Part shown: in pieces, positions 17,889 through 46,883 of the stretch
How the letters are laid out: each line of letters starts with the position of its first letter
How positions within the stretch are numbered: the first letter of the stretch is position 1
Source: Pseudomonadota bacterium
GTDB taxonomy: Bacteria; Pseudomonadota; Alphaproteobacteria; Acetobacterales; Acetobacteraceae
Assembly: GCA_021845595.1 (NCBI GenBank)
Contig: JAJZVV010000006.1
Location: forward strand, 84,361 to 148,360
DNA length: 64,000 nt
Direction: 5' to 3'
The notes under the pieces: generated by a model
What the model was told of the DNA's origin: nothing
Database searches by the model: none
Seen by the model: only the letters and a program-made list of their open reading frames with translations
Made by a program: the position numbers and the translations under genes

Positions 17889-17916
17889 TAGGTGGCCTCG
17901 CCGGGGGGCGCCGGTC

Positions 17917-18597
17917 TCAGAACACCTCGGGCCAGGTCTCGCGCAGCGCCCGATCCACGTCCGCGAGCGTCGCCGCGCGGCCGAGGGCGGCCAGGCTCGT
18001 CACGCCGTGCTCGGCGATGCCGCAGGGCACGATGCCGGCGAAATGGGAGAGATCGGGCGCCACGTTCAGCGCCACGCCGTGCCAGCTCACCCAGCGGCTG
18101 ACGCGCACGCCGATGGCGCCGATCTTCGCTTCCGCCCCGCTCGCCGCATCCACCACCCAGATGCCCACCCGGCCCTGCCGCCGCTCACCGCGCACGTCGA
18201 AGCGCGCCAGGGTGCGGATCAGCCATTCCTCCAGCCCCCAGACATAGGCGCGGAGGTCCCGCGCGCGCACCTGGCCGTGGGCATGCTCGAGATCGAGCAG
18301 GACATAGGCGGTGCGCTGGCCGGGGCCGTGATAGGTCCACTGCCCGCCGCGCCCTGCGGCATAGGTCGGGAACCGGTCCGGCGCGCGCAGATCCTCCGGG
18401 CGCGCCGAGGTGCCGGCGGTGTAGAGCGGCGGATGCTCCAGCAGCCAGACCAGCTCCGCCGCCGTCCCGGCGCGGATCGAAGCCGCCCGCTCGCGCATCG
18501 CCGCCAGCGCCTCCGGGTAGGCGACCCGGCCCGGCGCGACGCGCCATTCAGGACCGCCCGTCATCCGCGCGGCGGTGATTGATGCCGGCGCAGCCAT
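17917..18597 (-). CDS. lipB: Octanoyltransferase (lipoyl(octanoyl) transferase)
   Basis: [35 protein letters not shown] and the catalytic-Cys block GIVPCGI are present. The start may be the internal ATG at 18564. Confidence 0.9.
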
Positions 18598-18643
18598 CGG
18601 CTATATGCCCCCACCTCCCGGCGCATGGCGCCGGTCCCACGGT

Positions 18644-18729
18644 GCGGTCGTGGCGGAATGGTAGACGCGCAAGCTTGAGGTGCTTGTGGGGGAAACCCCG
18701 TGGAAGTTCGAGTCTTCTCGACCGCACCA
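18644..18729 (+). tRNA. tRNA-Leu (anticodon GAG)
   Basis: GCGGTCGTGGCGGAATGGTAGACGCGCAAGCTTGAGGTGCTTGTGGGGGAAACCCCGTGGAAGTTCGAGTCTTCTCGACCGCACCA. It is a type II tRNA with a long variable arm, anticodon loop TTGAGGT, acceptor stem GCGGTCG/CGACCGC, and an encoded CCA. Confidence 0.92.
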
Positions 18730-18785
18730 CTTCCTCTCCCGGCCGTTCGCTGGCATTGCTTGCATCGCAACCGGGAAGATGGGCC

Positions 18786-21062
18786 ATGGATGAGGATTTC
18801 CGCAAGGCGGCGCTCGACTATCACCGGCTGCCGCGACCCGGAAAAATCGCCGTGGAGCCGACCAAGCAGCTCGTCACCCAGCGCGATCTCGCCCTCGCCT
18901 ATTCCCCGGGCGTCGCCGCCGCCTGCGAGGCGATCGCCGCCGATCCGCAGACGGCGCGCGACTACACCGCCCGCGGCAACCTCGTCGCCGTCATCTCCAA
19001 CGGCACCGCCGTGCTCGGCCTCGGCGCCATCGGCGCGCTCGCCGGCAAGCCGGTGATGGAGGGCAAGGCGGTCCTGTTCAAGAAATTCGCCGGCATCGAC
19101 GTCTTCGACATCGAGGTGGACGCCACCGACCCGGACCTGTTCTGCACCGTCGTCGCCGCCCTGGAGCCGACCTTCGGGGCCATCAATCTCGAGGACATCA
19201 AGGCCCCCGAGTGCTTCGAGATCGAGTCGCGGCTGCGGGCGCGGATGGGCATCCCGGTGTTCCACGACGATCAGCACGGCACCGCCATCACCGTCGCGGC
19301 GGCGGTGCGCAACGGGCTCATGCTGCAGGGCAAGCGGCTGGAGGAGGTGCGGCTCGTCACCTCCGGCGCCGGCGCCGCGGCGCTCGCCTGCGTCGATCTC
19401 CTCGTCGCCATGGGGCTGCGGGCGGAGAACGTCACGCTCACCGACATCGCCGGCGTGGTCCGCGCCGACCGCGCCGGCATGCTGGCGAACATGGCCCGCT
19501 ATGCCCGCACCACCGACGCCGCCACCCTCGGCGAGGTGCTGGATGGCGCGGACCTGTTCCTCGGCCTCTCCGCCCCGCGCGTGCTGCGGCCGGAATGGCT
19601 GTCGCGGATGGCGCCGAAGCCGCTGATCCTGGCGCTGGCCAATCCGGAGCCGGAGATCCTGCCCGAGGCCGTGCGCGCCGTCCGCCCCGATGCGATCATC
19701 GCCACCGGGCGCAGCGACTTCCCCAACCAGGTCAACAACGTCCTCTGCTTCCCCTTCATCTTCCGCGGGGCGCTGGATGCCGGGGCGACGACCATCAACC
19801 AGGCGATGGAGCGCGCCGCCGTCGAAGCCATCGCGGCGCTGGCGCGGATGGAGGCCTCCGAGGTCGTCGCCGCGGCCTATGGCGGCGCGGCGCCGGTGTT
19901 CGGCCCCGACTACATCATCCCCAAGCCCTTCGATCCGCGGCTGATCCTGGAAATCGCGCCGGCGGTGGCGCGCGCGGCGATGGCGAGCGGCGTCGCCAGC
20001 CGGCCGATCGCCGATTTCGACGCCTACCGGCGCGAGCTGGAGCGATTCGTGTTCCGCTCCGGCCAGCTGATGCGCCCGGTGTTCGAAGCGGCACGCAGCG
20101 CGCCGCGGCGGATCGTCTATGCCGAGGGCGAGGATGCGCGGGTGCTGCGCGCGGCGCAGACCGTGCTCGACGACCGCACCGCGCGGCCGATCCTGCTCGG
20201 GCGGCGTGCGGTGATCGAGGCGCGCAGCCGCGACCTCGGGCTGCGGCTGACGGAGCAGCCGGGGCTCGAGATTCTCGACCCGGCCGAGGACAGCGCGACC
20301 TTCGGCCCTCTGCTCGCCGACTATCAGCAACTCGTCGGCCGTCGCGGCACCCCGCCGGCGGCGGCGGCGCGCCGGCTGGCCAACCGCAGCGCCGTCGCCG
20401 CGGCCATGCTGCTGCGCGCCGGCCTCGCCGATGCCGCGCTGATCGGCGGCAGCGGCGAATGGTGGCAGCAGGTGCAGTACGTGCTGCCGATCATTCCCCG
20501 GCGTGAGGGGGTGAGCCGCGTCTACGCGCTCTCGGCCGTCATCCTCGCGACCGGCACGCTGTTCCTGTGCGACACCCACATGAACCTGGACCCGACCGCC
20601 GAGCAGATCGCCGAGATGACGCTGCTCGCGGCGCAGGCGGTGCATGGGTTCGGCGTCACGCCGAAGGCGGCGCTGCTGTCGCACTCCAGCTTCGGCGCCT
20701 CGAACTCGCCCTCCGCGCGCAAGATGCGCGCCGCGCTGGCGCTGATCCGCGCCCGCGCGCCGGAGCTCGAGATCGACGGCGAGATGCACGCCGACGCCGC
20801 CCTGCTGCCGGCGGTGCGCGAGCGCGCCGTGCCCGACGGGCGGCTCACCGGCACCGCCAACCTGCTCATCCTGCCGACGCTGGACGCCGCCTCGATCGCC
20901 TTCAACCTGCTGAAGGCGGCGGCCGATGCGCTGCCGGTCGGGCCGCTGCTGCTCGGCATGGAGAAGCCCGTCCACGTGCTGGTGCCGAGCGTGACGGCGC
21001 GCGGCGTCGTCAATCTCAGCGCGCTCGCCGCCACCCAGGGCCATGCCGCGGCGCTGCCATGA
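18786..21062 (+). CDS. maeB: NADP-dependent malic enzyme (malic enzyme + PTA-like domain)
   Basis: The sequence starts [21 protein letters not shown] and continues with [10 protein letters not shown] and [35 protein letters not shown]-terminal phosphate-acetyltransferase-like domain follows. About 758 aa from ATG 18786. Confidence 0.93.
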
Positions 21063-35359: not shown

Positions 35360-35715
35360 AAAGCCGGTCCGCCGGCTATGGCGATAAACGGTGCGTGGAA
35401 TAAGCGTAGTGGACCCGGGGGCAGTACCCGGCGCCTCCACCAGATCGCATCGGTTCCAGCCCCGCGCCCTTCAGGGCGCCGGGGCCGGGCCGCTGCGCAG
35501 ACGGGGGCGAAACAGGCTCGACACGCGTGGTAAAGACCCATCTTTCGCTCGGCATGGTTCCGCCGTTATCGGGCCATATCACAGGTGCCAACGACAACAT
35601 GGCGCTCGCTGCCGCTGCATAAGCGGTAAGCGCGGTCCGGGGGGCACCGGGCAACAGAAGCCCCCCACTTCACCGCTTCGGCGGCCGGGACTGACACGCC
35701 GTCCTGCGCCGGGGG
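35360..35715 (+). ncRNA. ssrA: Two-piece (circularly permuted) alphaproteobacterial tmRNA gene; ends approximate
   Basis: The acceptor piece has a T-arm (CCGGG-GGCAGTA-CCCGG) and a 3' strand CGCCUCC-A-CCA, ending at 35442. A ~60-nt intervening segment follows. The coding piece starts with GGGGGCGAAACAGGCUCGAC at 35503, whose first 7 nt pair with CGCCUCC, including a G3:U wobble (the Ala identity element). The tag ORF is GCC AAC GAC AAC ATG GCG CTC GCT GCC GCT GCA TAA (35587-35622), giving ANDNMALAAAA. The 5' and 3' gene boundaries were not resolved. Confidence 0.8.
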
Positions 35716-35773
35716 CGCTTCCCCGCCCGCGTGGCACGCGCTATGTCAGCTTCGATCGGCAGAAGGGCCTGGC

Positions 35774-36268
35774 ATGGAAGACGACGGGGAACAGCAGCCG
35801 GAAAGCCTGCTGCCGTATCAGGAATGGACCGAGGAAGCGCTGCGGCTGGTGGTGGTCCGCGCGCTCCAGCACGCGGCCCGGCACGGGCTGCCCGGCGGGC
35901 ATCATTTCTACCTGAGCTTCCGCACCGACCAGCCGGGCGTGGTGATCCCGGCGCGGCTGCGTGCGCAATATCCGCGCGAAATGACCATCGTGCTCCAGCA
36001 CCAGTTCTGGGACCTGGTGATCGACGAGCCGGCCGGCCTGTTCAGCGTCGGGCTCTCCTTCGGCGGCACGCCCGCGAGCCTGACGATTCCCTTCGCGGCG
36101 ATCAGCGCCTTCGCCGATCCCGAGATCCGCTACGGGCTGCGGTTCACGATCGCCGAGCCGGACGCGGAGCCGGAGGCCGCGCCCGCACCCGAGACGCCGG
36201 CGGAGACGCCGACGCCGCAGATCGTCAGCCTCGACGCCTTCCGCCGGCGCACCCCGCCGAAGGAGTAG
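35774..36268 (+). CDS. sspB: ClpXP adaptor SspB (alphaproteobacterial type)
   Basis: 164 aa. HHFYLSFRTDQPGVVIPARLRAQYPREMTIVLQHQFWDLVIDE, GLSFGGTPASLTIPFAAISAFADP, an acidic/Pro linker, and a C-terminal IVSLDAFRRR (ClpX-binding-tail-like) match the SspB family pattern. Confidence 0.8.
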   Translation: MEDDGEQQPESLLPYQEWTEEALRLVVVRALQHAARHGLPGGHHFYLSFRTDQPGVVIPARLRAQYPREMTIVLQHQFWDLVIDEPAGLFSVGLSFGGTPASLTIPFAAISAFADPEIRYGLRFTIAEPDAEPEAAPAPETPAETPTPQIVSLDAFRRRTPPKE

Positions 36269-36332
36269 CGCTTCTCCGGGAGTAGCGCCGCTTCGCTTGC
36301 CTCGCCGGGCCGGGCACGCCATCCTCGCGCCC

Positions 36333-36971
36333 ATGACCGCATCGTCTGCCCCTCCCTCCCGCTTCGCCCGCGTCCGCCGCCTGCCCGAGCGCGGCGCCTA
36401 TGATCGCGCCACCATCGACGCCATCCTCGATGCCGCGCCGCTCTGCCATATCGGCCACGTCATCGACGGGCGGCCGGTCGTGATCCCGACCATCCATTGG
36501 CGGGTCGGCGATACGCTCTACTGGCACGGCAGCAGCGCCAGCCGCATGCTGGAGGCGACCCCCGGGGCCGAGGTTTGCCTCACCGCGACGCTGCTGGATG
36601 CCTACGTCCTCGCCCGCTCCGGGTTCAACCATTCGGTCAATTACCGCTCGGTGATGTGCTTCGGCCGTCCACGCGCGCTCGCCGCGGCGGCGGAGAAGGA
36701 AGCGGCGCTGGAGCACTTCATCGAGCATCTGTTTCCCGGCCGCTGGCCCTCCCTGCGCCCGCCCACGGTGCAGGAACTCAAGGCCACCGCCGTGCTGTCG
36801 ATGCCGATCGACGAGGCCTCGGCGAAGCTGCGCACGGACGGGCCGCACGACCCGGAGGCCGACCTCGCCTGGCCCGTCTGGGCCGGGCTCCTGCCCGTGT
36901 TCACGATGCGTGGCGCGCCGATGCCCGATGCCCACACCGCGCCCGGAACCGAGCCGCCCCAGGGATGGTGA
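36333..36971 (+). CDS. Pyridoxamine 5'-phosphate oxidase-family (FMN-binding split-barrel) protein
   Basis: ERGAYDRATIDAILDAAPLCHIGHVIDGRPVVIPT...LYWHGSSASRML...DAYVLARSGFNHSVNYRSVMCFG is the typical Pyridox_ox_2-type flavin-nucleotide-binding pattern. The start is taken at ATG 36333. Confidence 0.7.
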   Translation: MTASSAPPSRFARVRRLPERGAYDRATIDAILDAAPLCHIGHVIDGRPVVIPTIHWRVGDTLYWHGSSASRMLEATPGAEVCLTATLLDAYVLARSGFNHSVNYRSVMCFGRPRALAAAAEKEAALEHFIEHLFPGRWPSLRPPTVQELKATAVLSMPIDEASAKLRTDGPHDPEADLAWPVWAGLLPVFTMRGAPMPDAHTAPGTEPPQGW

Positions 36972-36988
36972 GCGCGGCATGGTGAATC

Positions 36989-39184
36989 TTGGGGCGCGCC
37001 GCCCGCCCGGTGGCGATCCCCGGCTCTAATCGGGCCCAACACGACCACCGCCGGAGGCAAGCCACGCCGGACGCGATCCCCTTCCTCCCGGCCCTCGCCT
37101 TGATCGTTCCGGGGCTGTTGGCCGTCGCTGCCGTCGAGGCCGCGCGGGCCGGGTTCGCGCGCGGGCCGGCGGCGCCAGGGCGAGCGGCCAATGCGGATCG
37201 CGGGCGGGGTGCGCGCGCCAGCCGGCCCGCCGCGAACGGCGCGCGCCGCGCCCGCATCGCCATCGTCACGCTCTGCCTCGCCGGAGCCGCGCTGGCCCTG
37301 GCGTGCCTGCTCGCTGCCCCCGCCCCGGCGAGCCTGCGGGTGCCATTGGGCGAGCCCGGCTTCGGTCTGGTGCTGGCGCTCGATGGGCTCTCCTGCTGGT
37401 TCATCCTCATTCTGTTCGCCGTCGCCGCTGCCGCCGTCGCATCATGCTCCGAAGCGAGCGCCGCGCCGCTCGCCGCCTTCGTCGCGGCCCTGGCGCTGAC
37501 CGTGCTCGCCGGCGACGGAGTGGCGTTGGTCCTCGGCCTCGAACTCACCGCGGTGACCGGCTGGGGCCTGATGCAGGCGGACACAGCCGCCGACGGGCCC
37601 GAACCGGCCCCCCGCGCGGGCGCGTCGCCGGCGTTCATCGGCATGGCCGTGCTCGGCGCCCTCGGGGTGCTCGGCGCCATCGTCCTGCTCGCCCCGGCGC
37701 TGCCCTCCGGCTTCCCGGACCTGCGCTTCGCCAGCCTGCGCGGCACGGCGCCGGCCGGCTGGAGCGAGATCGCGGTGCTGGCGCTGGCGCTGTTCGGCGC
37801 CGGCAGCCTGGCCGGCCTGGTGCCGCTGCATCTGTGGCTGCCGCCGTCTCTCAGCGCCGCACCCGTCCATGCCGGCGTGCTGATGGCCGGGGCGATGTTG
37901 CCCGTCGCCCTCTACACGCTCCTCCGCCTGCTGCTCGATCTCGCCGGCAGCGCCCCGCCGCTCGGCTGGGGCGTCGCGCTCGCCATGCTCGGGGGCTTCG
38001 CGGCGCTGCTCGGCGCGCTGCGGTCGGTGATCGAGACCGATTTGCGGGTGCTGCTCGCCTGCATCGCCATCGAACAGACCGGGCTGGTGACGATCGCCAT
38101 CGGCGTCGTCCTCATCGGCCGCGCGGCGGACCTGACGTCGCTGGCCAGCCTGGCGCTGGGGGCGGCGCTGCTGCTCGGTCTGACGCAGGGGCTGCTCTCG
38201 GCGCTGCTGCTGCTGGCCGCCGGCGCGGTCGAGCAGGGCGCGGGGACGCGCCATCTGCATCGTCTCGGCGGGTTGGCCCAGCGCATGCCGATGACCACGC
38301 TCTGCGCGCTGGTCGGCGCCGCCGGGCTCGCGGCGATGCCGCCGGGGCCGGGCTTCGCGGCGGCGTGGCTGCTGTTCCAGGCGCTGATCGGCGCGGCACG
38401 TGCCGGCGGGGTCGCGACCCAGCTCGCGCTCGCCGCCGCCGCTGCGCTGCTCGCCCTCGCCCTCGCCCTCGGCACCGTGGCCGCGCTGCGGCTGGTCGGC
38501 GTCGGCTTCCTCGGCCGCCCGCGTACCCCGCGCACCGCGGCGGCGGAAGACCCGGGGAGCGTTTCGCGGCGGGTGATGCTGGTGCTGGCCACGCTGGCGC
38601 TGATCATCGGCCTCGTCCCCGGGTTGCTGCTGCGCCTCGCCGGGCCGGCCTTCGCCGCGCTGCGCACCGAGCCGATGGGCGTGCGCGCGGCGCTCGCCGG
38701 TCTGCGCGCCCATCCCGAGCAGCCCGGCTACGCGCCGCTCGCCATCGCCGCGCTGCTCGCCGGCCTCGCCGCCATCGCATTCGTCCTGCTGCGCCGGGCC
38801 GATCCCGTCGGGCAGCAGCGCGGCCCGGCCTGGGATGGCGGCTTCGCGGCCCCGCCGCCATGGCTGCCGTTCGGCGATCCGCTGACCCAGTACGGCGCCG
38901 CATCCTTCTCGCAGATCCTGCGCCGCACGATCGGGGCCAGGCTCCTCGCGGCGCGCGAGACGGTGACCACGAAGCTGCCGGGCGAGACCAGCGCGGCACG
39001 GTTCCTGGTCACGACCCGCGATCCCGCCGCCGCCTGGCTGCTCGCCGCCATCGCCGCCGCCCGCCTGTGGCTGTGGCAGCGGATCGACCGGCTGCGGCCG
39101 TTCCCCCTTGGCGGCGCGCCGGCGCTCACGCTCGCCGCGCTGGCGGCGCTGCTGGCGGTGCTCGCCTGGCGAGGTCTGCGATGA
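36989..39184 (+). CDS. HyfB/HycC/NuoL-like antiporter-type membrane subunit (divergent)
   Basis: 731 aa and polytopic. It carries the proton_antipo_M-like block LFGAGSLAGLVPLHLWLPPSLSAAPVHAGVLMAGAMLPVALY and the TM5-like LGLELTAVTGWGLM. The track start is a TTG only 18 nt after the preceding stop, so the true start is uncertain. Confidence 0.7.
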   Translation: MGRAARPVAIPGSNRAQHDHRRRQATPDAIPFLPALALIVPGLLAVAAVEAARAGFARGPAAPGRAANADRGRGARASRPAANGARRARIAIVTLCLAGAALALACLLAAPAPASLRVPLGEPGFGLVLALDGLSCWFILILFAVAAAAVASCSEASAAPLAAFVAALALTVLAGDGVALVLGLELTAVTGWGLMQADTAADGPEPAPRAGASPAFIGMAVLGALGVLGAIVLLAPALPSGFPDLRFASLRGTAPAGWSEIAVLALALFGAGSLAGLVPLHLWLPPSLSAAPVHAGVLMAGAMLPVALYTLLRLLLDLAGSAPPLGWGVALAMLGGFAALLGALRSVIETDLRVLLACIAIEQTGLVTIAIGVVLIGRAADLTSLASLALGAALLLGLTQGLLSALLLLAAGAVEQGAGTRHLHRLGGLAQRMPMTTLCALVGAAGLAAMPPGPGFAAAWLLFQALIGAARAGGVATQLALAAAAALLALALALGTVAALRLVGVGFLGRPRTPRTAAAEDPGSVSRRVMLVLATLALIIGLVPGLLLRLAGPAFAALRTEPMGVRAALAGLRAHPEQPGYAPLAIAALLAGLAAIAFVLLRRADPVGQQRGPAWDGGFAAPPPWLPFGDPLTQYGAASFSQILRRTIGARLLAARETVTTKLPGETSAARFLVTTRDPAAAWLLAAIAAARLWLWQRIDRLRPFPLGGAPALTLAALAALLAVLAWRGLR

Positions 39185-40140
39185 CCCTGCTCAGCGGCCT
39201 CGTCGCCCAGGCCCTGCACCTCGCGCTCATGCTCGGGCTGGCGCCGGGATTAGCCGGGTTCGTCCGGTGGCTGAAAGCGCGGCTGCTGCACCGGGCCGGA
39301 CCGCCGCCGCGGCTCGCCTATCGGGACCTGCTGCGGCTGATGCGCAAGCAGACGGTGCGCCCGCAGAGCAGCTCCTTCGTCTTCGCCGCCGCGCCCGTCG
39401 TCGCCACGGCCGCCAGCGTGCTCGCCGCGGCGCTGGTTCCATCCTTCGCCCGCGGCATGACGACCGCGCCGCTCGCCGACCTGCTGCTGATCGCGGGCCT
39501 GTTCGCCCTGGCGCGGAGCGCGCTGGTGCTGGGCGCGATGGATGCGGGCAGCGCCGTCGGCGGCATCGGCGCCAGCCGCGTCGCCGCCTACGCCGTCTTC
39601 GCCGAGCCGGCGACGCTGCTCGTCGTCGTGACGCTCGCCGTTCTCCTCGGCACCACCAATCTCGACCAACTCACCGGGCTGCTCCAACCCGGCGGGGTCG
39701 CAGCGCACGCGCCGCTCGGCCTCGCACTGGCCCCGCTGGTGGCGAGCGCCCTGGCCCAGGTCGGGGTCGGGCCGATCGCAGGCGCAGCGAGCGCGGCCGA
39801 GCCGGCGATGCTGTTCGAGGCCCTGACGCTCGAACATGGCGGGCGTGACCTGGCGCTGCTGGAGTTCGGCGCGGCCGTGCGGCTGATCACCTGGTTCAGC
39901 CTGATCGCCGCGCTGTTTCTGCCCGCCTTCACCGCCCCCGCCGCCGCCTTTCCGCTCGGTTGGCTGATCGGCCTCGCCGCCTGGGCGGTCAAACTGACCG
40001 TGCTGGCCGGGGCGGTGGCGCTGGCCGAGGCCGCGATGGCGCGGCTGGGCGTTGCGCGGGTCCCCGGGGTCCTCGGTGCGGCCATCGTGCTGGGCCTGCT
40101 GGCCGCGGCACTCGTCGCCCTCGGCGAGGGGCTCGCCTGA
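39181..40140 (+). CDS. HycD/HyfC/NuoH-like membrane subunit
   Basis: The gene starts at ATG 39181 (ATGA overlap with the upstream stop). MTLLSGLVAQALHLALMLGLAP..ARLLHRAGPPPRLAYRDLLRLMRKQTV, MDAGSAVGGIGASR and LAEAAMARLGV align block-for-block with my recollection of E. coli HycD. It is the 3' part of track ORF 37303-40140. Confidence 0.8.
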   Translation: MTLLSGLVAQALHLALMLGLAPGLAGFVRWLKARLLHRAGPPPRLAYRDLLRLMRKQTVRPQSSSFVFAAAPVVATAASVLAAALVPSFARGMTTAPLADLLLIAGLFALARSALVLGAMDAGSAVGGIGASRVAAYAVFAEPATLLVVVTLAVLLGTTNLDQLTGLLQPGGVAAHAPLGLALAPLVASALAQVGVGPIAGAASAAEPAMLFEALTLEHGGRDLALLEFGAAVRLITWFSLIAALFLPAFTAPAAAFPLGWLIGLAAWAVKLTVLAGAVALAEAAMARLGVARVPGVLGAAIVLGLLAAALVALGEGLA

Positions 40141-40763
40141 TGGCCATCCCGCTCACCCAGCCGCTGGCGCCCCTGTTCGGCAGCGTGGCGCTGATGGCCG
40201 GCCTGGTGCTGATGACGCGCCGGCGCGCTGGCGCGCTGATCGGCGCGGGCGCGGTCCAGGCCTGGGCGGCGGCCGGCGTCGCAGCCGTACGCGGCGGCCT
40301 CGCCGGGGACGCGGGCCTCGTCGCCGCCGCGCTGATCACCCTGGCGGCGAGCGGCGTGGCGATCCCGATCGCGCTCACACTCATCACCCGCCGGCGCGAT
40401 GCGGCGCCGGTGTCGGCGCCGGGAAGCATGGGGCTCGGCGCCGCGCTGGTCGGGCTGGCCGCGCTGGCGGTCCCGGGCGTGGCCATTGCCGGCGGTGCGC
40501 TGACCCGCGAGAGCCTGGCGGTCGCCATCGCAGTGGGGCTGCTCGGCGCGCTGCTCGTCGCCATGCGCCGCAGCCCGCTCGCGCAACTCGCCGGGGTTCT
40601 CTCGCTCGGCAACGGGGTGATCCTGGCCGCCACGCCGGGCGTGCCGCTGATCGCAACGGTCCCGCTGGTAGCGCTGGCACCGGCGGCGCTGCTGCTGGGT
40701 GCCATGGGGCTGGGTGCGGTCGATCTGGACGCCGGCGCCACGCCCGGCTCGCCGGGGCCATGA
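40140..40763 (+). CDS. HyfE/NuoK-like small membrane subunit
   Basis: 207 aa starting at ATG 40140 (TGATG overlap). It is a multi-TM Ala/Leu/Gly-rich protein. The block LAVAIAVGLLGALLVAMRRSPLAQLAGVLSLGNGVILAA resembles the HyfE block ...QRNILRQIFGYCLMENG... Confidence 0.6.
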   Translation: MAIPLTQPLAPLFGSVALMAGLVLMTRRRAGALIGAGAVQAWAAAGVAAVRGGLAGDAGLVAAALITLAASGVAIPIALTLITRRRDAAPVSAPGSMGLGAALVGLAALAVPGVAIAGGALTRESLAVAIAVGLLGALLVAMRRSPLAQLAGVLSLGNGVILAATPGVPLIATVPLVALAPAALLLGAMGLGAVDLDAGATPGSPGP

Positions 40764-42166
40764 ACCCGCCGCTCGCCGCGCTGGTGCCTTGCATCCCGTT
40801 CGCTGCGGCGATCGCGCTCGGCCTGATCGGCGATCGGCGATTGGGCGGCCGGCGGATCGGCGTCTGGGTCAATCTCGCCGCCGCCGGCGCGACGTTTCTC
40901 GCCGCCCTCGCCTTCGCCCTTGAGCCGCCGGCGTCCTCGGCCCTTCTGCTGGCCGATCCGCTGGCGCGGCATTTCGCCCTGCTCGCCGGCTTCGTCGGCC
41001 TCACCGCTTCCTGCGCCGAGTTCGGGCAGGCGGACCCACACGACCTCGCCCACGCCCTCGGCCAAGGCTTCCTCGGCGCCGTTCTGGCGGCGCTGATGTC
41101 GAACAGCCTCGTCGTCACCATCGCCGCGGCCGAGGCCGCTTGCCTCGCGCTCGCCGCCGCCGCGGCCCTGCCGCTGACGCCAGAGGCGATGCGGGCGGCC
41201 TGGACCGGCACCGTCACCGCGGGCCTCGCCGGCGGCCTCGCCCTGTTCGGCGTGATCCTGCTCGCCCTCGCGGCCCTGCCGGCACCAACCGCGCCGGCGC
41301 CAACCGCGCCGGCGCTGACCTGGAGCGCGCTGCCCCAGGTCGTGGCCGCCGGCCAGGGCGGCCTGCTCAGCCTCGGCTTCGTGTTCGTCCTCGTCGGCGC
41401 CGCGGCGATGGCGATGCTGGCGCCGCTGCATCTATGGAGTTCGGGGCGGGACGAAGCCGCGCCGGCGATGACAGTGCCGCTGCTGACGACCCCGTTGATG
41501 ACGACCCCGTTGATGACGACGCTGGCGATCACGGTCATTCTCCGGCTGCGCCAGGCGGTCGCGGACACTGTCGACGCGGCTCTGCCCGGGCCGGCGGTTC
41601 TGGCGCTCGGCCTGCTGGCGCTGCTGATCGCGGCGCTGGCACTGGGGCGGCAGCGCGACGCGCGGCGCCTCGTCGCCGTCGCCACGGTGGGACAGGCCGG
41701 CCTCGTGGCCGTCGCGATCGGGCTCGGCACCAGCGCGGCCGTGTTCGCCGGCGTGCTGCACCTGACGCTCGCGACGCTGGTGCTGACCGCGCTGCTGTCA
41801 CGCGCCAGGACGGCCGAGGCCGGCGTGACGGTCGCCGCCGGCCTGGTCGCGCTGGCGGGGCTGCCGCCCTTCGGCCTTTTCTCTGGCATCGTTCTCATCG
41901 CCGCGGCCGCCGCGCACGCCGCGCCGCTGCTGCTGGCCCCGCTCGGCGCGGCTCTCGGCCTCAGTGCCTGGGCCATGCTGGCGCGGCTGCCGGCGCTCCG
42001 GGCGCCAGGCGCGGCGACGAGCCCGACCGCGCCGCGCGCGGCAGGCTGGGCACACGTGAGGATCATCGTGCCCTGGCTGCATCTGGCGCTCACCGCGCTG
42101 CTCGGCCTGGCCATGCCGATCCCGCTGGTGCGCTGGTTCGCCACCATCGCCGGCAGTCTGGGATGA
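40760..42166 (+). CDS. HyfF/NuoN-like antiporter-type membrane subunit (divergent)
   Basis: 468 aa starting at ATG 40760 (ATGA overlap). It is polytopic, with the block GFVFVLVGAAAMAMLAPLHLWSSGRDEAAPAMTVPLL resembling the G.GxKxxxxPxHxWLP motif. It contains two internal 15-nt tandem duplications. Confidence 0.65.
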   Translation: MNPPLAALVPCIPFAAAIALGLIGDRRLGGRRIGVWVNLAAAGATFLAALAFALEPPASSALLLADPLARHFALLAGFVGLTASCAEFGQADPHDLAHALGQGFLGAVLAALMSNSLVVTIAAAEAACLALAAAAALPLTPEAMRAAWTGTVTAGLAGGLALFGVILLALAALPAPTAPAPTAPALTWSALPQVVAAGQGGLLSLGFVFVLVGAAAMAMLAPLHLWSSGRDEAAPAMTVPLLTTPLMTTPLMTTLAITVILRLRQAVADTVDAALPGPAVLALGLLALLIAALALGRQRDARRLVAVATVGQAGLVAVAIGLGTSAAVFAGVLHLTLATLVLTALLSRARTAEAGVTVAAGLVALAGLPPFGLFSGIVLIAAAAAHAAPLLLAPLGAALGLSAWAMLARLPALRAPGAATSPTAPRAAGWAHVRIIVPWLHLALTALLGLAMPIPLVRWFATIAGSLG

Positions 42167-43674
42167 GCGCCGCCGCCGCCATCATCCGTGCCGGCGCGGC
42201 CGCCGACCAGCGCCCCTGGCCGCGTCATGCGCTGAGCCGCGACCGCTGGCAGGCGATGGCGGCGGCGCTGGGCGCGGCGGATGCGCCCTCGCTGCAAGGA
42301 GTGTGGGCCGAGGCCGAACGCGTCCACGCCTTGTTCCTCGATGCCGGATCGCCGCTATCGGCCTCGGTCGAGATCGCTGGCGGGACCTACCCGGCGCTGT
42401 CGCCGCACTGCCCCGCCGCGTCCTGGTTCGAGCGCATGATCCACGATCTGTTCGGCCATGCCGCCGAGGGTGGGCGCGATGTGCGGGCGTGGCTCGACCA
42501 CGGCGCCTGGGCCACCGCCGCCCCGCTCGGCCCACGCCAGGCCGCGTTGCCGCCGCGCGTCGGCGCCCCGGAGCCGCCGGAATTCCTCCTCGCCGAGGGT
42601 GAGGATCTGAACCAGATCGGGCTCGGGCCGGTCGCCGGCGCCATCGCCGAGCCGGCGCATCTGCGGCTCACCGCCCAGGGCGAGACGCTGGTGCGGCTGG
42701 AGGTTCGGCTCGGCTACGCCCACAAGGGCACGCTCGGGCTGATGCGGGGCACGCCGCCACGCGCCGCGGCACGGTTCGCCGCTCGCCTGTCCGGCAGCGC
42801 GACCGTGGCGCACGGGCTGGCCTATGCCCACGCCGTGGAGGCGGCGCTCGGCGTGGTCCCGCCGCCGCGCGCGGTGGCGCTGCGGGCGGTGATGGCGGAG
42901 CTGGAGCGCATCCGGTCCCATCTCGATGCCGCCGCCGCGATCCTCGCCGAGGCCGGCGCGGCCTTCCTGGAGACGCGGTTCGGCTGGCATCGGGAAGCGA
43001 TGCACGAGGCCGCCGGCCGCGCCTTCGGGCACCGGCTGATGATGGACGGCGTCGCGCCCGGCGGGCTCGCCACCGATCTCGCCGCCGACGGCGCCGCCGC
43101 GATCCGCGCCGCGCTGGAGGCGCTCGCCGCCGAACTGCCGGATCTCGTGCGCAGGCTGGACCGCTCGGCGAGCCTCGGCACCCGCATGGCCGGGATCGGC
43201 CGCCTCGCGCCCGACCTCGCCGCCGGGTTCGGCGCTTCCGGACCGGTTGGGCGTGCGTCCGGGCGTGGCGGCGATGCGCGCCTCGTGCCGGGCTATCCGC
43301 CCTACCCGGCGCTCGGCCTCGAGGTCCCGACCCGCGCCGGGGGCGATGTCGCGGCGCGGCTGCGCGTGCGCCTCGGCGAGGTGCCTCAGAGCACGCGGCT
43401 GCTGCGCGCCCTGCTCGACGCGCTACCCGATGGCACCATCGCGACCGCCCTGCCGGCGGCGAGCGGCGAGGGACTGGGCGTCGCCGAGTCCAGCCGGGGC
43501 ACGGTCTGGCACTGGGTGCGCATCGAGGGCGGCCTCATCGCCGCCGCCTTCGCCCGCGACCCCGACTGGCTGCACTGGCCGCTCCTGGAAGCGGCCATGC
43601 GCAACGGCATGCTCGAAGACCTGCCGCTCTGCGCCGCCTCCTTCGGCCTCACCAGCTCGGGAGTGGACCTGTGA
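42163..43674 (+). CDS. Fused NuoC-NuoD / HycE(HyfG)-like large subunit lacking the [NiFe] cysteine ligands
   Basis: 503 aa starting at ATG 42163 (ATGA overlap). The NuoC-like part reads YPALSPHCPAASWFERMIHDLFGHAAEG. The large-subunit part reads GLGPVAGAIAEPAHLRLTAQGETLVRLEVRLGYAHKG. The L1 position reads RLSGSATVAH instead of RxCGxCxxxH. The C-terminus SFGLTSSGVDL replaces (S)FDPCxxCxxR. Confidence 0.8.
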   Translation: MSAAAAIIRAGAAADQRPWPRHALSRDRWQAMAAALGAADAPSLQGVWAEAERVHALFLDAGSPLSASVEIAGGTYPALSPHCPAASWFERMIHDLFGHAAEGGRDVRAWLDHGAWATAAPLGPRQAALPPRVGAPEPPEFLLAEGEDLNQIGLGPVAGAIAEPAHLRLTAQGETLVRLEVRLGYAHKGTLGLMRGTPPRAAARFAARLSGSATVAHGLAYAHAVEAALGVVPPPRAVALRAVMAELERIRSHLDAAAAILAEAGAAFLETRFGWHREAMHEAAGRAFGHRLMMDGVAPGGLATDLAADGAAAIRAALEALAAELPDLVRRLDRSASLGTRMAGIGRLAPDLAAGFGASGPVGRASGRGGDARLVPGYPPYPALGLEVPTRAGGDVAARLRVRLGEVPQSTRLLRALLDALPDGTIATALPAASGEGLGVAESSRGTVWHWVRIEGGLIAAAFARDPDWLHWPLLEAAMRNGMLEDLPLCAASFGLTSSGVDL

Positions 43675-44201
43675 CGATCTGGCAGCGGTTGCGGCACACG
43701 CTGCGCCACGGGCCGGCGACCCTGCCGGCAGCGGCGCCATCGGCGGAGACGGCGGCGGCGCTGGCGGCGCGGCTGGACGCGGCGGCGCAGCGCCGGCTCG
43801 GGCGCAGCCTCGCCATCCGCCATGTCGGCGCCGGCGGCTGCGATGGCTGCGAGCTCGAACTGCGCGCGCTGACCGGCATCGTCTACGACCTCGAACGGTT
43901 CGGCCTGCGCTTCGTCACCAGCCCCCGCCACGCCGACATCCTGCTCGCGACCGGCCCGCTCACGCGCAGCATGGCCGAGGCGCTGGCGCGCACGCACGCG
44001 GCCATGGGCGAGCCGAAATGGGTCGTCGCGGTCGGCGACTGCGCCATCGACGGCGGCGTGTTCAAGGGCAGCTACGCCTGCCTCGGCGGCATCACGACCC
44101 TGCCCGTCGATCTCGTCATCCGCGGCTGCCCGCCGACGCCGTGGCAGGTGCTGGAGGGGCTGCGGGCGCTGATCGAGGCCAACGCGGCGCCGGCGCGCTG
44201 A
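43671..44201 (+). CDS. HycG/HyfI/NuoB-like small subunit ([4Fe-4S] ligands retained)
   Basis: 176 aa starting at GTG 43671 (GTGA overlap). GAGGCDGCELE, VAVGDCAIDGGVF and IRGCPPTP give the four-Cys pattern of the proximal/N2-type cluster of the NuoB/HycG family. Confidence 0.85.
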   Translation: MTIWQRLRHTLRHGPATLPAAAPSAETAAALAARLDAAAQRRLGRSLAIRHVGAGGCDGCELELRALTGIVYDLERFGLRFVTSPRHADILLATGPLTRSMAEALARTHAAMGEPKWVVAVGDCAIDGGVFKGSYACLGGITTLPVDLVIRGCPPTPWQVLEGLRALIEANAAPAR

Positions 44202-44214
44202 GCGGACCCGGACG

Positions 44215-44631
44215 ATGCTGCATCTCGTCAAACTCGCCGTCGGCATCCGCGATGTGGCGCATCTGGCCGCGGTGCAGCAGGCGCGGGCGGCTGCCGATCC
44301 GCCGCTGCGGCACCTGACCCGCAACAATCCGAGGCGCGCCAGCGAGATCGTCGCCGGCGGCTCGATCTACTGGAGCATCGCCGGCACCCTCCAGGTACGC
44401 CAGCGCATCCTGGCCATCGAACCGGCCACGCGCCCGGACGGCAGTGCCTGCACCGCGCTGGTCCTCGAACCGGCGCTGGTGCGCGTCGTCGCCCAGGCGA
44501 TGAAACCCTTCCAGGGCTGGCGCTATCTGCGCCCCGAGGATGCGCCGCCCGACCTCGCCGAGGCCTCCAGCGACGCCGACGGCATGCCGCCTTCCATGCA
44601 GGCGGCCCTGCGCGCGCTCGGCCTGCTATAG
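44215..44631 (+). CDS. DUF1489 family protein
   Basis: MLHLVKLAVGIRDVAHL...HLTRNNPRRASEIVAGGSIYWSIAGTLQVRQRILAIE matches my recollection of the conserved alphaproteobacterial DUF1489 pattern. It starts 13 nt after the small-subunit stop. Confidence 0.7.
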   Translation: MLHLVKLAVGIRDVAHLAAVQQARAAADPPLRHLTRNNPRRASEIVAGGSIYWSIAGTLQVRQRILAIEPATRPDGSACTALVLEPALVRVVAQAMKPFQGWRYLRPEDAPPDLAEASSDADGMPPSMQAALRALGLL

Positions 44632-45501
44632 GCGCCCGCCCGGCCCGTCCGGGTCGGCCATCGCCAGCACCGCCGCGGGCGAGAACCCGGCGGCGCGCAG
44701 CGCGCGCAGGCTCGGCGCCCCGTCGCGCTTGGCCAGCCGCCGTCCGGCTGCATCCGCGAGCAGCCGATGGTGCGCGTAGCGCGGCGCCGGCCAGCCGAAC
44801 AGGGCCTGAAGCAGCCGGTGCAGGTCCGTCGCCGGCTGGAGGTCCTCGGCCCGGGTGACCAGGGTCACGCCCTGGAGCGCATCGTCGTGGGTGACGCAGA
44901 GATGGTAGCTCGCCGGCATGTCCTTGCGCGCCAGCACGACATCGCCGAAGCGCTCCGGCGCGCAGACGCGGCGCCCCTCGCCCAGCTCCTCGAAATCCAA
45001 CGGCGCCGCCAGCGTGGCGAGCGCGCGGCCGATGTCGAGCCGGAGCGCATAGCGTTCGCCCGTCTCCAGCCGGCGCCGGCGCTGCGCGGGCGCCAGCGCG
45101 CGGCAGGTGCCCGGATAGACCGCGCTGCCATCCGGCGCGTGCGGCGCCGCACCCGCTGCTGCCACCTCGCGCTGGATGTCGGCGCGCGTGCAGAAGCACG
45201 GGTAGAGCAGGCCGCGCGCGGCGAGGGCATCGAGCGCGGCGGCGTAGTCCTCCATGTGCGCGGACTGCACCCGCACCTCGCCGTCCCAGTGGAGCCCGAG
45301 CCAGGCGAGGTCTTCGCGGATCGCGGCGGCGAACTCGGCGCGGCAGCGGCTGGCATCGATATCCTCCAGCCGCAGCAGAAACCGCCCGCCCGCCCCCCCA
45401 CCGGCCCGCCGCGCCGCGCGCCAGGCACGGAGCGCGGCATGGGCGTGGCCGAGATGGAGCAGTCCGGTCGGGCTCGGGGCGAAGCGGGTGACGAATTCCA
45501 T
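44626..45501 (-). CDS. gluQ: tRNA glutamyl-Q(34) synthetase
   Basis: MEFVTRFAPSPTGLLHLGHAHAAL (HIGH motif) and LLRLEDID are present. It is a truncated GluRS-like catalytic domain of 291 aa with no anticodon-binding domain. Confidence 0.88.
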   Translation of the reverse strand: MEFVTRFAPSPTGLLHLGHAHAALRAWRAARRAGGGAGGRFLLRLEDIDASRCRAEFAAAIREDLAWLGLHWDGEVRVQSAHMEDYAAALDALAARGLLYPCFCTRADIQREVAAAGAAPHAPDGSAVYPGTCRALAPAQRRRRLETGERYALRLDIGRALATLAAPLDFEELGEGRRVCAPERFGDVVLARKDMPASYHLCVTHDDALQGVTLVTRAEDLQPATDLHRLLQALFGWPAPRYAHHRLLADAAGRRLAKRDGAPSLRALRAAGFSPAAVLAMADPDGPGGRL

Positions 45502-45665
45502 CCATGCGGCCTGTGCGAAGCGCCGAGCATAGCGGTTCCCCGCGCGCCGGCGACAGATCGCCCGCCCCCCCGCGCGAGCGGGCCGATCAAGCCAACGCCC
45601 GGAAGCGGACCGTGCCCTGGAAACGATAGGGCTGGCGATCCGCCCCGCTTTTCAGCAGCAAGGAT

Positions 45666-45790
45666 AGCAAGCGTAGGGTGGGGTGCCTTCGCACCCCACC
45701 GCCTGTGCCGGTCGCCATGCTGCTATCTGCCGACCTGCCGAAAGTTGGTGGGGTGCGAAGGGCACCCCACCCTACGCTTGCTACGCTTGC
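45666..45790. repeat. Inverted pair of REP-like palindromic elements plus a 9-nt duplication
   Basis: agcaagcgtagggtggggtgccttcgcaccccacc (45666-45700) and its inverse ggtggggtgcgaagggcaccccaccctacgcttgct (45747-45781) form the pair. Each contains its own GGTGGGGTGC/GCACCCCACC hairpin. They are followed by ctacgcttg-ctacgcttg. Confidence 0.8.
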
Positions 45791-45791
45791 T

Positions 45792-46883
45792 CTAGCGGGC
45801 ACTCACCCCGTAGGTCGCCACCAGGCCCTTGATGATATTCGTCTGCCTCTCCGCCTTCAGGGCTTCGGTGATCTTTTTCAGCTCACTGAGGAGGACGAAT
45901 TGCTTGACATAGGCCGGATTGGCCCTGCGCTCGCCATCATCCGGGAAATCCTCTTTCAGCTTCGCCAGCGCAGTCTCGGCTTTTTCAATTTGAGCCTGGA
46001 CCTCGGCCACTTGCTTTTTGAGTTTGTCGTTGTCTTTTTGCCCCGTGGGCGTTGTGGACGACTTTTCCCCCGCGGCGTCGGTATAGGCAGTGCCGGGCTG
46101 GCCCTTCACGGAGGCATGCTCGTAGCCGTTCTTTTTCAGTAGCTGCCACACGGAGCGGGCAAACGATTCATAGTCATAATCCGAGTTCGGAGGCGCGATC
46201 CCGCCGGCCGCGGTGAAGCAGCCGCTGAGCCAGACCGTTCCGGAGAAATTCTTGCTGAGGCGCTTCCTCTTGTCGCCCGAGGTCAGCAGATCGACGATCT
46301 GTTGCGGCGTGCGCTTGCCCAGCTTTGTCCCGATGATCGTGCCGTTGACTTCGACCCGGCTGCCATGGGCGGCAAGAATGACGTAGCCGGAGGTGAGATC
46401 GCCGAATTCGGCGTCATCCGGTTCCTCGACCGTGGTGCCGAACTTCTTGGCCTGCGCTTTCGCGGCGTTGTCGATGGTCTTGTCACCCTTCTGCAGGTTG
46501 ACGACCGCATTCGCCTGGTTCTGGGACGCCGTCACGATGGAGGCGAAGTCCTTGCGGATCACCACGGTATCGTCGATTTTCGCCGGCTTGCCCTTGCGCG
46601 ACAGGATTCCGCTCACCGTCAGCGCAAGTTGGCCCTTGGTGTCAATGCCCGCGCGCACCGAGAGCTCATTTGACGTGCCCTTGATCTCTTTCTGATAATT
46701 ACTGATCGTCGACATCGCGTCCGACAGCCCCGGAAGCTTGATGCCCTGCAAATCCAGAACGCCCTCGTCCTTGCAGTAAGCAACGACCGCCGTGTTCAGC
46801 TCCGAAGCAATGTCCTTCACGTCCGACAGGTTTTTCGGCGTATTGCTGCCCTTTTTCGGGTAGATGTACGTTTCGAGTGCCAT
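45792..46883 (-). CDS. Hypothetical Lys-rich protein (363 aa) in a lower-GC islet; possible His/Cys (clan CD, C80-like) protease core plus C-terminal coiled coil
   Basis: ATG 46883 (MALETYIYPKK) is preceded by GAGGGGGTGGGGAA. The composition (many K, N, T, S) is unlike its neighbours. The core GYVILAAHGSRVEVNGTIIGTKLGKRTPQQIVDLL...GTVWLSGCFTAAGG has a hydrophobic strand ending in HG, and about 46 aa later a hydrophobic strand ending in GC. The C-terminal ~90 aa is heptad-like (KLKKQVAEVQAQIEKAETALAKLKE). I recognise no family with confidence. Confidence 0.6.
   Translation of the reverse strand: MALETYIYPKKGSNTPKNLSDVKDIASELNTAVVAYCKDEGVLDLQGIKLPGLSDAMSTISNYQKEIKGTSNELSVRAGIDTKGQLALTVSGILSRKGKPAKIDDTVVIRKDFASIVTASQNQANAVVNLQKGDKTIDNAAKAQAKKFGTTVEEPDDAEFGDLTSGYVILAAHGSRVEVNGTIIGTKLGKRTPQQIVDLLTSGDKRKRLSKNFSGTVWLSGCFTAAGGIAPPNSDYDYESFARSVWQLLKKNGYEHASVKGQPGTAYTDAAGEKSSTTPTGQKDNDKLKKQVAEVQAQIEKAETALAKLKEDFPDDGERRANPAYVKQFVLLSELKKITEALKAERQTNIIKGLVATYGVSAR

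Follow-up and report, generated by a model that had tools for sequence, protein, structure and literature searches.

In a 64,000-nt stretch of an Acetobacteraceae contig (hereafter the window; guanine-cytosine content (GC) about 72-77% in this part of it and 73% over the genome), the last gene of a six-gene cluster, at positions 43671..44201 of the forward strand, encodes a NuoB/HycG-like small subunit that keeps four cysteines in the pattern of a proximal [4Fe-4S] cluster. The six-gene cluster is a Hyq/Ehr-class relative of complex I and of the group 4 hydrogenases. We consider it probable, with fair confidence, that the gene encodes a HyqI/EhrS-type subunit of a complex that has no ferredoxin subunit and is not a hydrogenase, and that this copy of the complex, itself degenerate, keeps the role of its iron-sulfur (Fe-S) cluster. 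The source genome (3.62 Mb in 50 contigs, 97% complete) was searched as a whole, and the locus was compared with 178 related loci in three sets, namely 58 with flanks of 1.5 kb, drawn from genome searches at class and at family level, 40 of about 20 kb, and 80 named loci from species-representative genomes.

Cysteine ligands and fold of the small subunit

The 176-aa product, whose GTG start codon overlaps the stop codon of the large-subunit gene (GTGA), was matched by the Pfam model PF01058 (Oxidored_q6) with 97.5 bits (cut-off 27) over residues 57-167, which places it in that family. Its cysteines lie in three motifs, GGC57DGC60E, GDC124A and GC153PP. Cys57 and Cys60 form a hydrogenase-type CxxC at 43839..43850 (+; TGC codons at 43839 and 43848) and not the CC pair of complex I, and Cys124 and Cys153 are encoded by TGC codons at 44040..44042 and 44127..44129 of the same strand. 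The top matches in the Protein Data Bank (PDB) were E. coli HycG (7z0s_G, E 1.3e-30) and P. furiosus MbhJ (6cfw_J, E 1.7e-28), followed by PSST/NuoB chains. In the phmmer alignment to HycG, GGCDGCELE is paired with GGCNGCEIE, GDCA with GACG, and GCPPTP with GCPPTP, and the cysteine motifs were paired in the same way with MbhJ.

Against the complex-I chains, Cys60 falls on the second cysteine of the tandem CC and the first position of the pair is taken by Gly59. Query residues 56-163 are aligned there with Nqo6 residues 42-150, and Cys60, Cys124 and Cys153 correspond to what we take to be the ligands Cys46, Cys111 and Cys140 of the T. thermophilus structure. The protein is not a complex-I NuoB proper, as TIGR01957 gave 103 bits (cut-off 142.7) and every NuoB equivalog profile scored far under its own threshold. 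In HycG, the cluster G1 is equivalent to N2 and is bound without a tandem cysteine pair (PMC9474812). Cys57, Cys60, Cys124 and Cys153 are predicted from these alignments to occupy the ligand positions of a single proximal, N2-equivalent [4Fe-4S] cluster. An initial annotation made from the sequence alone had described the same four-cysteine pattern, and this description is upheld by the alignment with the HycG and MbhJ motifs and by the near-invariance of the residues in the family.

Cys57, Cys60 and Cys124 were found in 60/60 small subunits of the family, at an overall identity of about 57-70%, and Cys153 in 58/60, the two exceptions being a sequence cut by a contig end and an aberrant open reading frame (ORF) of 294 aa. 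All four cysteines were invariant among 51 database homologues, and all three motifs were present in 75 of 76 further named loci. The four cysteines are thus conserved far beyond chance and are the best-conserved feature of the family, in agreement with the four conserved cysteines of Hyq/Ehr small subunits.

An AlphaFold2 model of the small subunit, built with 51 homologues (predicted local distance difference test 82.3; predicted template modelling score 0.76), was matched by Foldseek with a probability of 1.00 to PSST, HycG, MbhJ and MbsJ, consistent with a flavodoxin-like NuoB fold. Root mean square deviations from MbhJ and MbsJ were 3.4-3.5 Å, that from MbhJ being 3.5 Å at 41% identity. 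The protein had been thought short in comparison with a HycG of about 250 aa; HycG does have 255 aa, but the small subunit itself is of ordinary length, those of the family having 170-191 aa, MbhJ 167 aa and T. thermophilus Nqo6 181 aa. HycG is longer because of a C-terminal extension of the enterobacterial protein and not because of a truncation in the small subunit studied here.

The nearest characterized relatives share the ligands and differ in the surroundings of the subunit. HycG (7Z0S chain G), the best PDB match, has the same CxxC / C / CPP ligands for its proximal cluster G1; unlike the present protein, it is fed by HycF (two clusters) and HycB and feeds a real [NiFe] site in HycE, and none of these partners is found here. 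MbhJ (6CFW chain J) and MbsJ (6U8Y chain J) carry the same ligand motifs, the former at a similar size, whereas Mbh and Mbs use ferredoxin through a NuoI-like subunit and Mbh has a NiFe site. With NuoB/Nqo6/PSST the small subunit shares the fold, three of the four ligand positions and the proximity to NuoD-like and NuoH-like subunits; unlike them, it has no tandem Cys-Cys and no upstream N-module or NuoI/NuoG chain.

Absence of a ferredoxin subunit

The six genes lie on the same strand with overlapping stop and start codons at 39181, 40140, 40760, 42163 and 43671, in the coupled order hyfB-C-E-F-G-I that is characteristic of Hyq/Ehr, without hyfA, hyfD or hyfH and with a HycE/NuoCD-like large subunit devoid of NiFe cysteines. 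The initial annotation had noted that no NuoI/HycF/HyfH-type gene is present in the gene cluster or in the window. This was confirmed, since a six-frame scan of the window for CxxCxxCxxxC returned only one off-frame noise match, at 62132, and none of the 17 matches of the Fer4_7 hidden Markov model (HMM) in the whole genome lies inside the window. The full genome, which the initial annotation had recommended searching for orphan 2x[4Fe-4S] ferredoxin genes, holds no orphan gene of the HycF/HyfH/NuoI type: in the whole genome, the TIGR01971 (NuoI) HMM scored above its cut-off only at 140205-140570 of contig C23, within the nuo operon, where the sole NuoI is encoded at 140148-140636. An orphan HycF/HyfH elsewhere in the genome was likewise rejected, as none of the 10 ORFs with two CxxCxxCxxxC motifs is a free-standing subunit of about 180 aa. 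By eye, these ORFs are NuoI, GlcF-like, PreA/PreT-like, a BoxA-like Fd-FNR fusion, CcoG, FdsA, DmsB-like, TcuB-like and AsrA-like, and apart from NuoI the paired 4Fe-4S motifs belong to domains of larger enzymes. The AsrA-like ORF, with two 4Fe-4S motifs, lies at the start of contig C39 (positions 1-1200), where its context is cut by the contig end; proteins of this kind often adjoin cytoplasmic hydrogenases or sulfite reductases, and the genome has no true NiFe large subunit. The NuoI/HycF-type subunit found in the operons of group 4 hydrogenases is thereby absent from the cluster, the window and the flanks.

The initial annotation had treated the missing ferredoxin gene as a peculiarity of this locus, a view that did not survive the comparison of gene neighbourhoods. 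No ORF with two 4Fe-4S motifs was found in or beside the clusters in the 58 short, 40 longer and 80 named loci. A single Fe-S gene was encountered in the vicinity of the 178 loci, an apparently unrelated 889-aa ORF that carries three 4Fe-4S motifs and lies some 4 kb downstream of the cluster in one of them (L082, genome G570, 16820-19486, minus strand). Wherever the locus is not interrupted by a contig end, the small-subunit gene lies 3' of the large-subunit gene, and nearly all of the loci of about 20 kb keep the B-C-E-F-G-I order. In a few Acetobacteraceae a small non-Fe-S gene is inserted between the large- and small-subunit genes: an ORF of about 115 aa resembling the glyoxalase/bleomycin-resistance (VOC) fold in L118 (Paracraurococcus ruber), L125, L126, L127 and L165 (Plastoroseomonas arctica), a different small ORF in L135 and L159, and a YnfA-like membrane ORF in L128. 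These inserted ORFs were rejected as an Fe-S partner, none of them having Fe-S motifs. Clustering of the ORFs of 42 regions of about 20 kb, with a crude caller based on GC at third codon positions that could miss weak signals, disclosed no conserved redox neighbour; besides the cluster genes, only two minor families recur, an aldo-keto-reductase-like family and a small helix-turn-helix (HTH) family, in 6 loci each.

Consequently, the ferredoxin-less six-subunit layout is the fixed architecture of the family, universal in this branch, and the complex in this lineage never had a HycF/NuoI ferredoxin subunit. Since the layout is fixed, the genes predict no Fe-S centre other than the cluster of the small subunit. 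Both the layout and the conserved cysteines have already been published for Hyq and are implied by the name hyfBCEFGI, and the locus is ordinary for its family in these respects. The hyq operon of A. caulinodans was named by Ng 2009 (PMC2650096), and Sprecher 2012 (PMC3357923) presented the six subunits of Hyq as a 'core' of complex I, listed no NuoI counterpart, and reported that HyqI orthologues conserve four cysteines 'likely coordinating a N2-type' cluster (printed as Cys55/58/112/152). As in A. caulinodans HyqBCEFGI (AZC_4355-4360), the order here is B-C-E-F-G-I with no NuoI/HyfH, HyfA or HyfD, the large subunit is a NuoC-D fusion of about 503-504 aa without CxxC, and the small subunit has about 175 aa and four cysteines. 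The puzzle of the electron partner raised by the initial annotation is therefore real, but it belongs to the family, is already in print, and can be regarded as largely answered.

A ferredoxin-type subunit might still be supplied in trans, by the NuoI of complex I or by a soluble 7Fe ferredoxin, because the genome encodes both (an FdxA-type 7Fe ferredoxin lies at 493-897 of C44, 84 kb upstream on the contig of the window) and because all solved structures of the superfamily contain a NuoI-type subunit (PMC9474812). Such a gene is linked to the cluster in 0/178 loci, and the genome has a single NuoI, inside the nuo operon, and no extra copy despite two Hyq-type clusters. This solution is thus hardly to be expected.

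Hydrogen metabolism and the second gene cluster

The large-subunit gene (42163..43674, +; PF00346, PF00374 and PF00329) encodes a NuoC-NuoD fusion, HycE-like and of the HyqG/EhrL type. In the alignment with its best PDB match, HycE (7z0s_E, 3e-45), all four NiFe cysteine positions are substituted: RVCGICGFAH of HycE reads RLSGSATVAH, and the position of the C-terminal DPCxxC reads GLTSSG (..GLTSSGVDL). The CxxC ligand pairs of group 4 [NiFe]-hydrogenases are thus missing, as in the 504-aa HyqG, which lacks both CxxC motifs (PMC3357923), and the phrase 'former NiFe pocket' in the initial annotation was apt. In the 97%-complete genome, no HypD (PF01924) was found and no nifH above cut-off, NifA/sigma-54 sites not being part of the search; there are no NiFe large-subunit homologues besides the two Hyq-type genes. 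Without HypD the [NiFe] cofactor cannot be made, and without nifH there is no nitrogenase H2 to recycle. Since the NiFe ligands, HypD and nitrogenase are all absent, the complex is not a [NiFe]-hydrogenase in this organism.

The host genome holds a second complete six-gene Hyq-type cluster of the same order, outside the window at 42484-49624 of contig C21, with 49% identity to the window copy in the large subunit and 58% in the small subunit. The C21 cluster keeps the canonical motifs, including large-subunit Cys258/489/495 and the Lys of transmembrane helix 7 (TM7) in HyfB. In a large-subunit tree rooted with the genome's own NuoD (outgroup branch of 10 changes per site, root unresolved), the C21 copy falls inside a clade with 100% support in the Shimodaira-Hasegawa-like approximate likelihood ratio test and with the C-terminus ..CNKSFNCSYSGHDL ('..SGHDL'), where class-wide matches are also placed; named loci with this C-terminus include Bradyrhizobium, Azospirillum and Hyphomicrobium. 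The window copy stands outside the '..GHDL' clade of Bradyrhizobium, Azospirillum and Xanthobacter sequences and is not a member of Hyq sensu stricto; it was found on a long branch with two congeners in an Acetobacteraceae-centred '..SGVDL' group, the status of which as clade or grade hangs on the root. At the positions of HyqG Cys258/491/497 it has Leu, Cys490 and Leu, the C21 copy having all three cysteines, and its host lacks the nif genes that would accompany Hyq sensu stricto in a diazotroph, no nifH being above cut-off. The true Hyq orthologue of the genome is therefore the C21 cluster, of which the window copy is a divergent paralog. Among culturable Acetobacteraceae with the '..SGVDL' type are Paracraurococcus ruber JCM 9931, Siccirubricoccus deserti and Roseomonas oleicola. 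About 200 nt upstream of the C21 cluster lies a small XRE-type HTH ORF that recurs upstream in 6 loci and may be hyqR-like. Unlike A. caulinodans Hyq, the window copy belongs to the '..SGVDL' group, has one of the three HyqG cysteines, has no hyqR-like regulator directly upstream, lacks the TM7 Lys of HyfB and most of the conserved charges of HyfF and HyfE, and resides in a genome without nif and hyp as judged from the nifH and HypD searches.

These observations bear on the proposal that the complex is a genuine H2:quinone oxidoreductase, an 'endo-hydrogenase' with a non-canonical H2 site in the large subunit, whose single cluster would pass electrons straight to ubiquinone and need no ferredoxin wire. 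In A. caulinodans, hyq is NifA-regulated, and its deletion abolishes the recycling of H2 as well as H2 evolution under microaerobic conditions, phenotypes that the authors interpreted as uptake and evolution of H2 (PMC2650096, PMC3357923). The window cluster shares the six-gene layout and the four small-subunit cysteines with Hyq, and HypD is weakly associated with the cluster. Among 301 Acetobacteraceae genomes, 164 bear the cluster (strong homologue at E <=1e-90), and HypD was found in 44/164 of these compared with 14/137 of the others, an odds ratio of 3.2 (p 2e-4) that ignores phylogeny and genome size. On the other hand, 120 of the 164 cluster-bearing genomes (73%) lack HypD, the present genome has neither the four NiFe ligands nor HypD, nifH or another hydrogenase, and the window copy, with one of three HyqG cysteines, is not the canonical Hyq orthologue. 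In addition, work based on HydDB classed the catalytic subunit of At. ferrooxidans hyfBCEFGI as non-hydrogenase (PMC7735108), and Nitrospira Ehr was not induced by H2 (PMC12342949). A hydrogenase of this kind is therefore very unlikely for the window copy.

The window cluster resembles in this respect the Ehr complexes, in which the NiFe ligands are lacking and whose function has been described as unknown (PMC6349859, PMC10284858, PMC12342949, PMC7735108), still in 2025. Ehr of Geobacter sulfurreducens (GSU0739-45), Nitrospira and At. ferrooxidans (hyfBCEFGI) are likewise group 4 relatives with a large subunit devoid of NiFe cysteines (PMC12342949, PMC10284858, PMC7735108, PMC7894505). These non-alphaproteobacterial complexes, the subunit sets of which vary, are likened here by description and not by direct sequence comparison, and the membrane-arm degeneration of the window copy is not reported for them.

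Constraint on the window copy and its proposed role

Both the second cluster and the degeneration of membrane arm and pocket escaped the initial annotation, as they lie outside the window or need comparison to be seen. Positions conserved in at least 90% of the other loci were compared in each subunit, and ratios of nonsynonymous to synonymous substitution (dN/dS) were estimated within the genus from three genomes by the Nei-Gojobori method (NG86), at a synonymous divergence (dS) of about 0.06-0.33. In the small subunit, 8 of 71 conserved positions are changed (11%), no cysteine being among them, and its dN/dS of 0.16-0.19 is the lowest in the cluster and compares with 0.21-0.25 for the C21 paralog. 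The large subunit has 20 of 150 conserved positions changed and a dN/dS of 0.24-0.29 (paralog 0.19-0.28). Its pocket motifs, which in the family read SGDSTVAH (in full R-x-SGDSTVAH/Y), EPGHFRF and CNKSFNCSYSG, read SGSATVAH, EPAHLRL and CAASFGLTSSG in the window copy.

The membrane subunits, all encoded on the forward strand, are further altered. The HyfB/NuoL-like antiporter-type subunit (36989..39184; PF00361, 83 bits) has an uncertain start, TTG 36989 giving the longest ORF, and scores 335 bits, under the cut-off, with the NCBIfam model for hydrogenase 4 subunit B; 16 of its 104 conserved positions are changed, the TM7 motif GAGSKAG..PLHxWLP begins GAGSLAG by a change of Lys to Leu, and its dN/dS is 0.36 (paralog 0.20-0.22). 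For the HycD/NuoH-like subunit (39181..40140; PF00146, 85 bits), which overlaps the upstream gene by ATGA, the figures are 21/84 (25%), including E193Q, R196V and D200A, with a dN/dS of 0.26-0.45 (paralog 0.10-0.13). The HyfE-like small membrane subunit (40140..40763) has no Pfam match and was recognized by tblastn, which showed homology to what the paralog and related loci encode at the HyfE position; 39/72 conserved positions (54%) are changed and the dN/dS is 0.48-0.65 (paralog 0.07-0.12). The strongly degenerate HyfF/NuoN-like antiporter-type subunit (40760..42166; PF00361, 28.6 bits) has lost 58/125 (46%), among them K149T, K217M in TM7, E233A, H338A, K342L and E377I, at a dN/dS of 0.50-0.55 (paralog 0.10-0.11). 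By comparison, other loci have a median of about 2 changed conserved positions per subunit and the C21 paralog 0-2. The residues of a redox-driven ion pump (TM5 Glu, TM7 Lys and TM12 Lys/Glu of the antiporter-like subunits) are consequently not retained in the window copy. Degeneration has thus spared only the Fe-S subunit, which is the last thing the family gives up, and this asymmetric constraint argues against canonical ion pumping by the window copy.

The same data could be taken to represent a redundant duplicate in slow decay, in which the cysteines persist because the small subunit decays last or is needed for folding. A canonical paralog is present in the same genome, pump residues and pocket motifs are lost, and the dN/dS of the membrane genes is three- to six-fold above that of the paralog. 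Partial degeneration of membrane subunits and of the large-subunit C-terminal motif has moreover arisen independently in three other Acetobacteraceae (L077, L078 and L081), so that membrane-arm decay seems to recur in the '..SGVDL' group. However, every gene of the window cluster has a dN/dS below 1, the large subunit remains constrained, the small subunit is at least as constrained as that of the paralog, and all small-subunit cysteine motifs are kept in every degenerate lineage. All six reading frames of the window cluster are intact, and the genes recovered from two other species of the genus, on contigs both cut within or before hyfB, are also all open and translationally coupled at the dS given above. 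Decay is therefore a rather unlikely explanation.

It was also considered that no redox chemistry takes place, the [4Fe-4S] cluster being structural or an O2/redox sensor and the complex an ion transporter or a membrane scaffold. This would fit with the loss of the catalytic metal site, with the fact that none of the loci has an electron-input module or a conserved redox neighbour, and with the Mrp-like antiporter subunits with canonical lysines that most family members keep. It fits less well with the high family-wide conservation of SGDSTVAH, EPGHFRF and CNKSFNCSYSG beside the cluster, which suggests a ligand or reaction site, and the window copy does the opposite of a pure transporter in losing the transporter residues and keeping the Fe-S subunit. 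A complex without redox chemistry is thus improbable, more so than slow decay.

As for the surroundings of the cluster, a promoter and terminator scan of 35500-45800 found nothing beyond shuffled expectation. A DUF1489 gene (44215..44631, +; PF07370, 160 bits) starts 13 nt 3' of the small-subunit stop and is probably not a subunit; it was rejected as a seventh one, because a downstream position on the same strand is confined to the three genomes of this genus. Four other Acetobacteraceae loci have it nearby on the opposite strand and the rest lack it, and this difference in strand points to synteny and not to operon membership. Just upstream of the cluster, at 36297-36971, lies a gene for a PNPOx-family (Pyridox_ox_2) flavoprotein, a 79%-identical homologue of which occupies the same position in one other locus only (L078). 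For this reason it was rejected as an electron donor for the family as a whole; contigs of the same genus are cut before this position, and a partner role within the genus is still possible.

A mechanism can be proposed in which the single [4Fe-4S] cluster would carry one electron at a time between two sites. The first would be the pocket where the large, small and NuoH-like subunits meet, which is the quinone site in complex I. The second would be a partner docking directly on the surface that is covered by NuoI in other members of the superfamily, and a soluble ferredoxin or flavodoxin is its most plausible identity. Canonical members would link this redox chemistry, by way of the two antiporter-like subunits, with the movement of ions; in the window copy, such coupling is probably absent. 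The window copy probably keeps a cluster-dependent role, be it redox or sensing, without canonical ion pumping, as its pattern of conserved residues suggests.

Several points weigh against the interpretation favoured here. Binding of a [4Fe-4S] cluster in this clade is deduced from sequence, and the docking partner and the quinone site are proposals derived by reasoning from the superfamily. In an ungapped comparison of the large subunit with Nqo4, the quinone-binding Tyr of complex I is replaced by Gly and the His probably by Ala. The H2 phenotypes of A. caulinodans, which are the sole experiments on the family, are left unexplained, and the positive association with HypD could hint at a link with H2 metabolism. 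The relaxed constraint seen in the membrane genes might just as well be a sign that the whole copy is heading for loss, and NG86 estimates are rough at 73% GC, the control being the paralog in the same genomes.

A further, more tentative possibility, unlikely but less so than slow decay, is that the duplicated complex shed its ion-pumping residues and pocket motifs, with purifying selection still acting on the Fe-S subunit and on all six reading frames, and constitutes a natural separation-of-function variant, in which the cluster-dependent job of the peripheral module needs no energy coupling. Candidate jobs would then be redox sensing, or membrane-anchored electron transfer with a directly docking soluble partner. 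If this were true, the core function of the Ehr class would lie in the [4Fe-4S] module rather than in ion pumping.

Ehr/Hyq complexes are widespread, with clusters in 48/401 alphaproteobacterial genomes and in more than 550 stretches of species-representative genomes, and they also occur in nitrifiers, Geobacter and acidophiles. New here are the counts across the family, the observation that most hosts lack Hyp, and a paralog with a degenerate membrane arm that still protects its Fe-S subunit. Taken together, the ferredoxin-less layout with a single cluster, the mostly HypD-less hosts and the surviving Fe-S ligands direct attention to the Fe-S module and its direct partner, and not to hydrogen, in this family.

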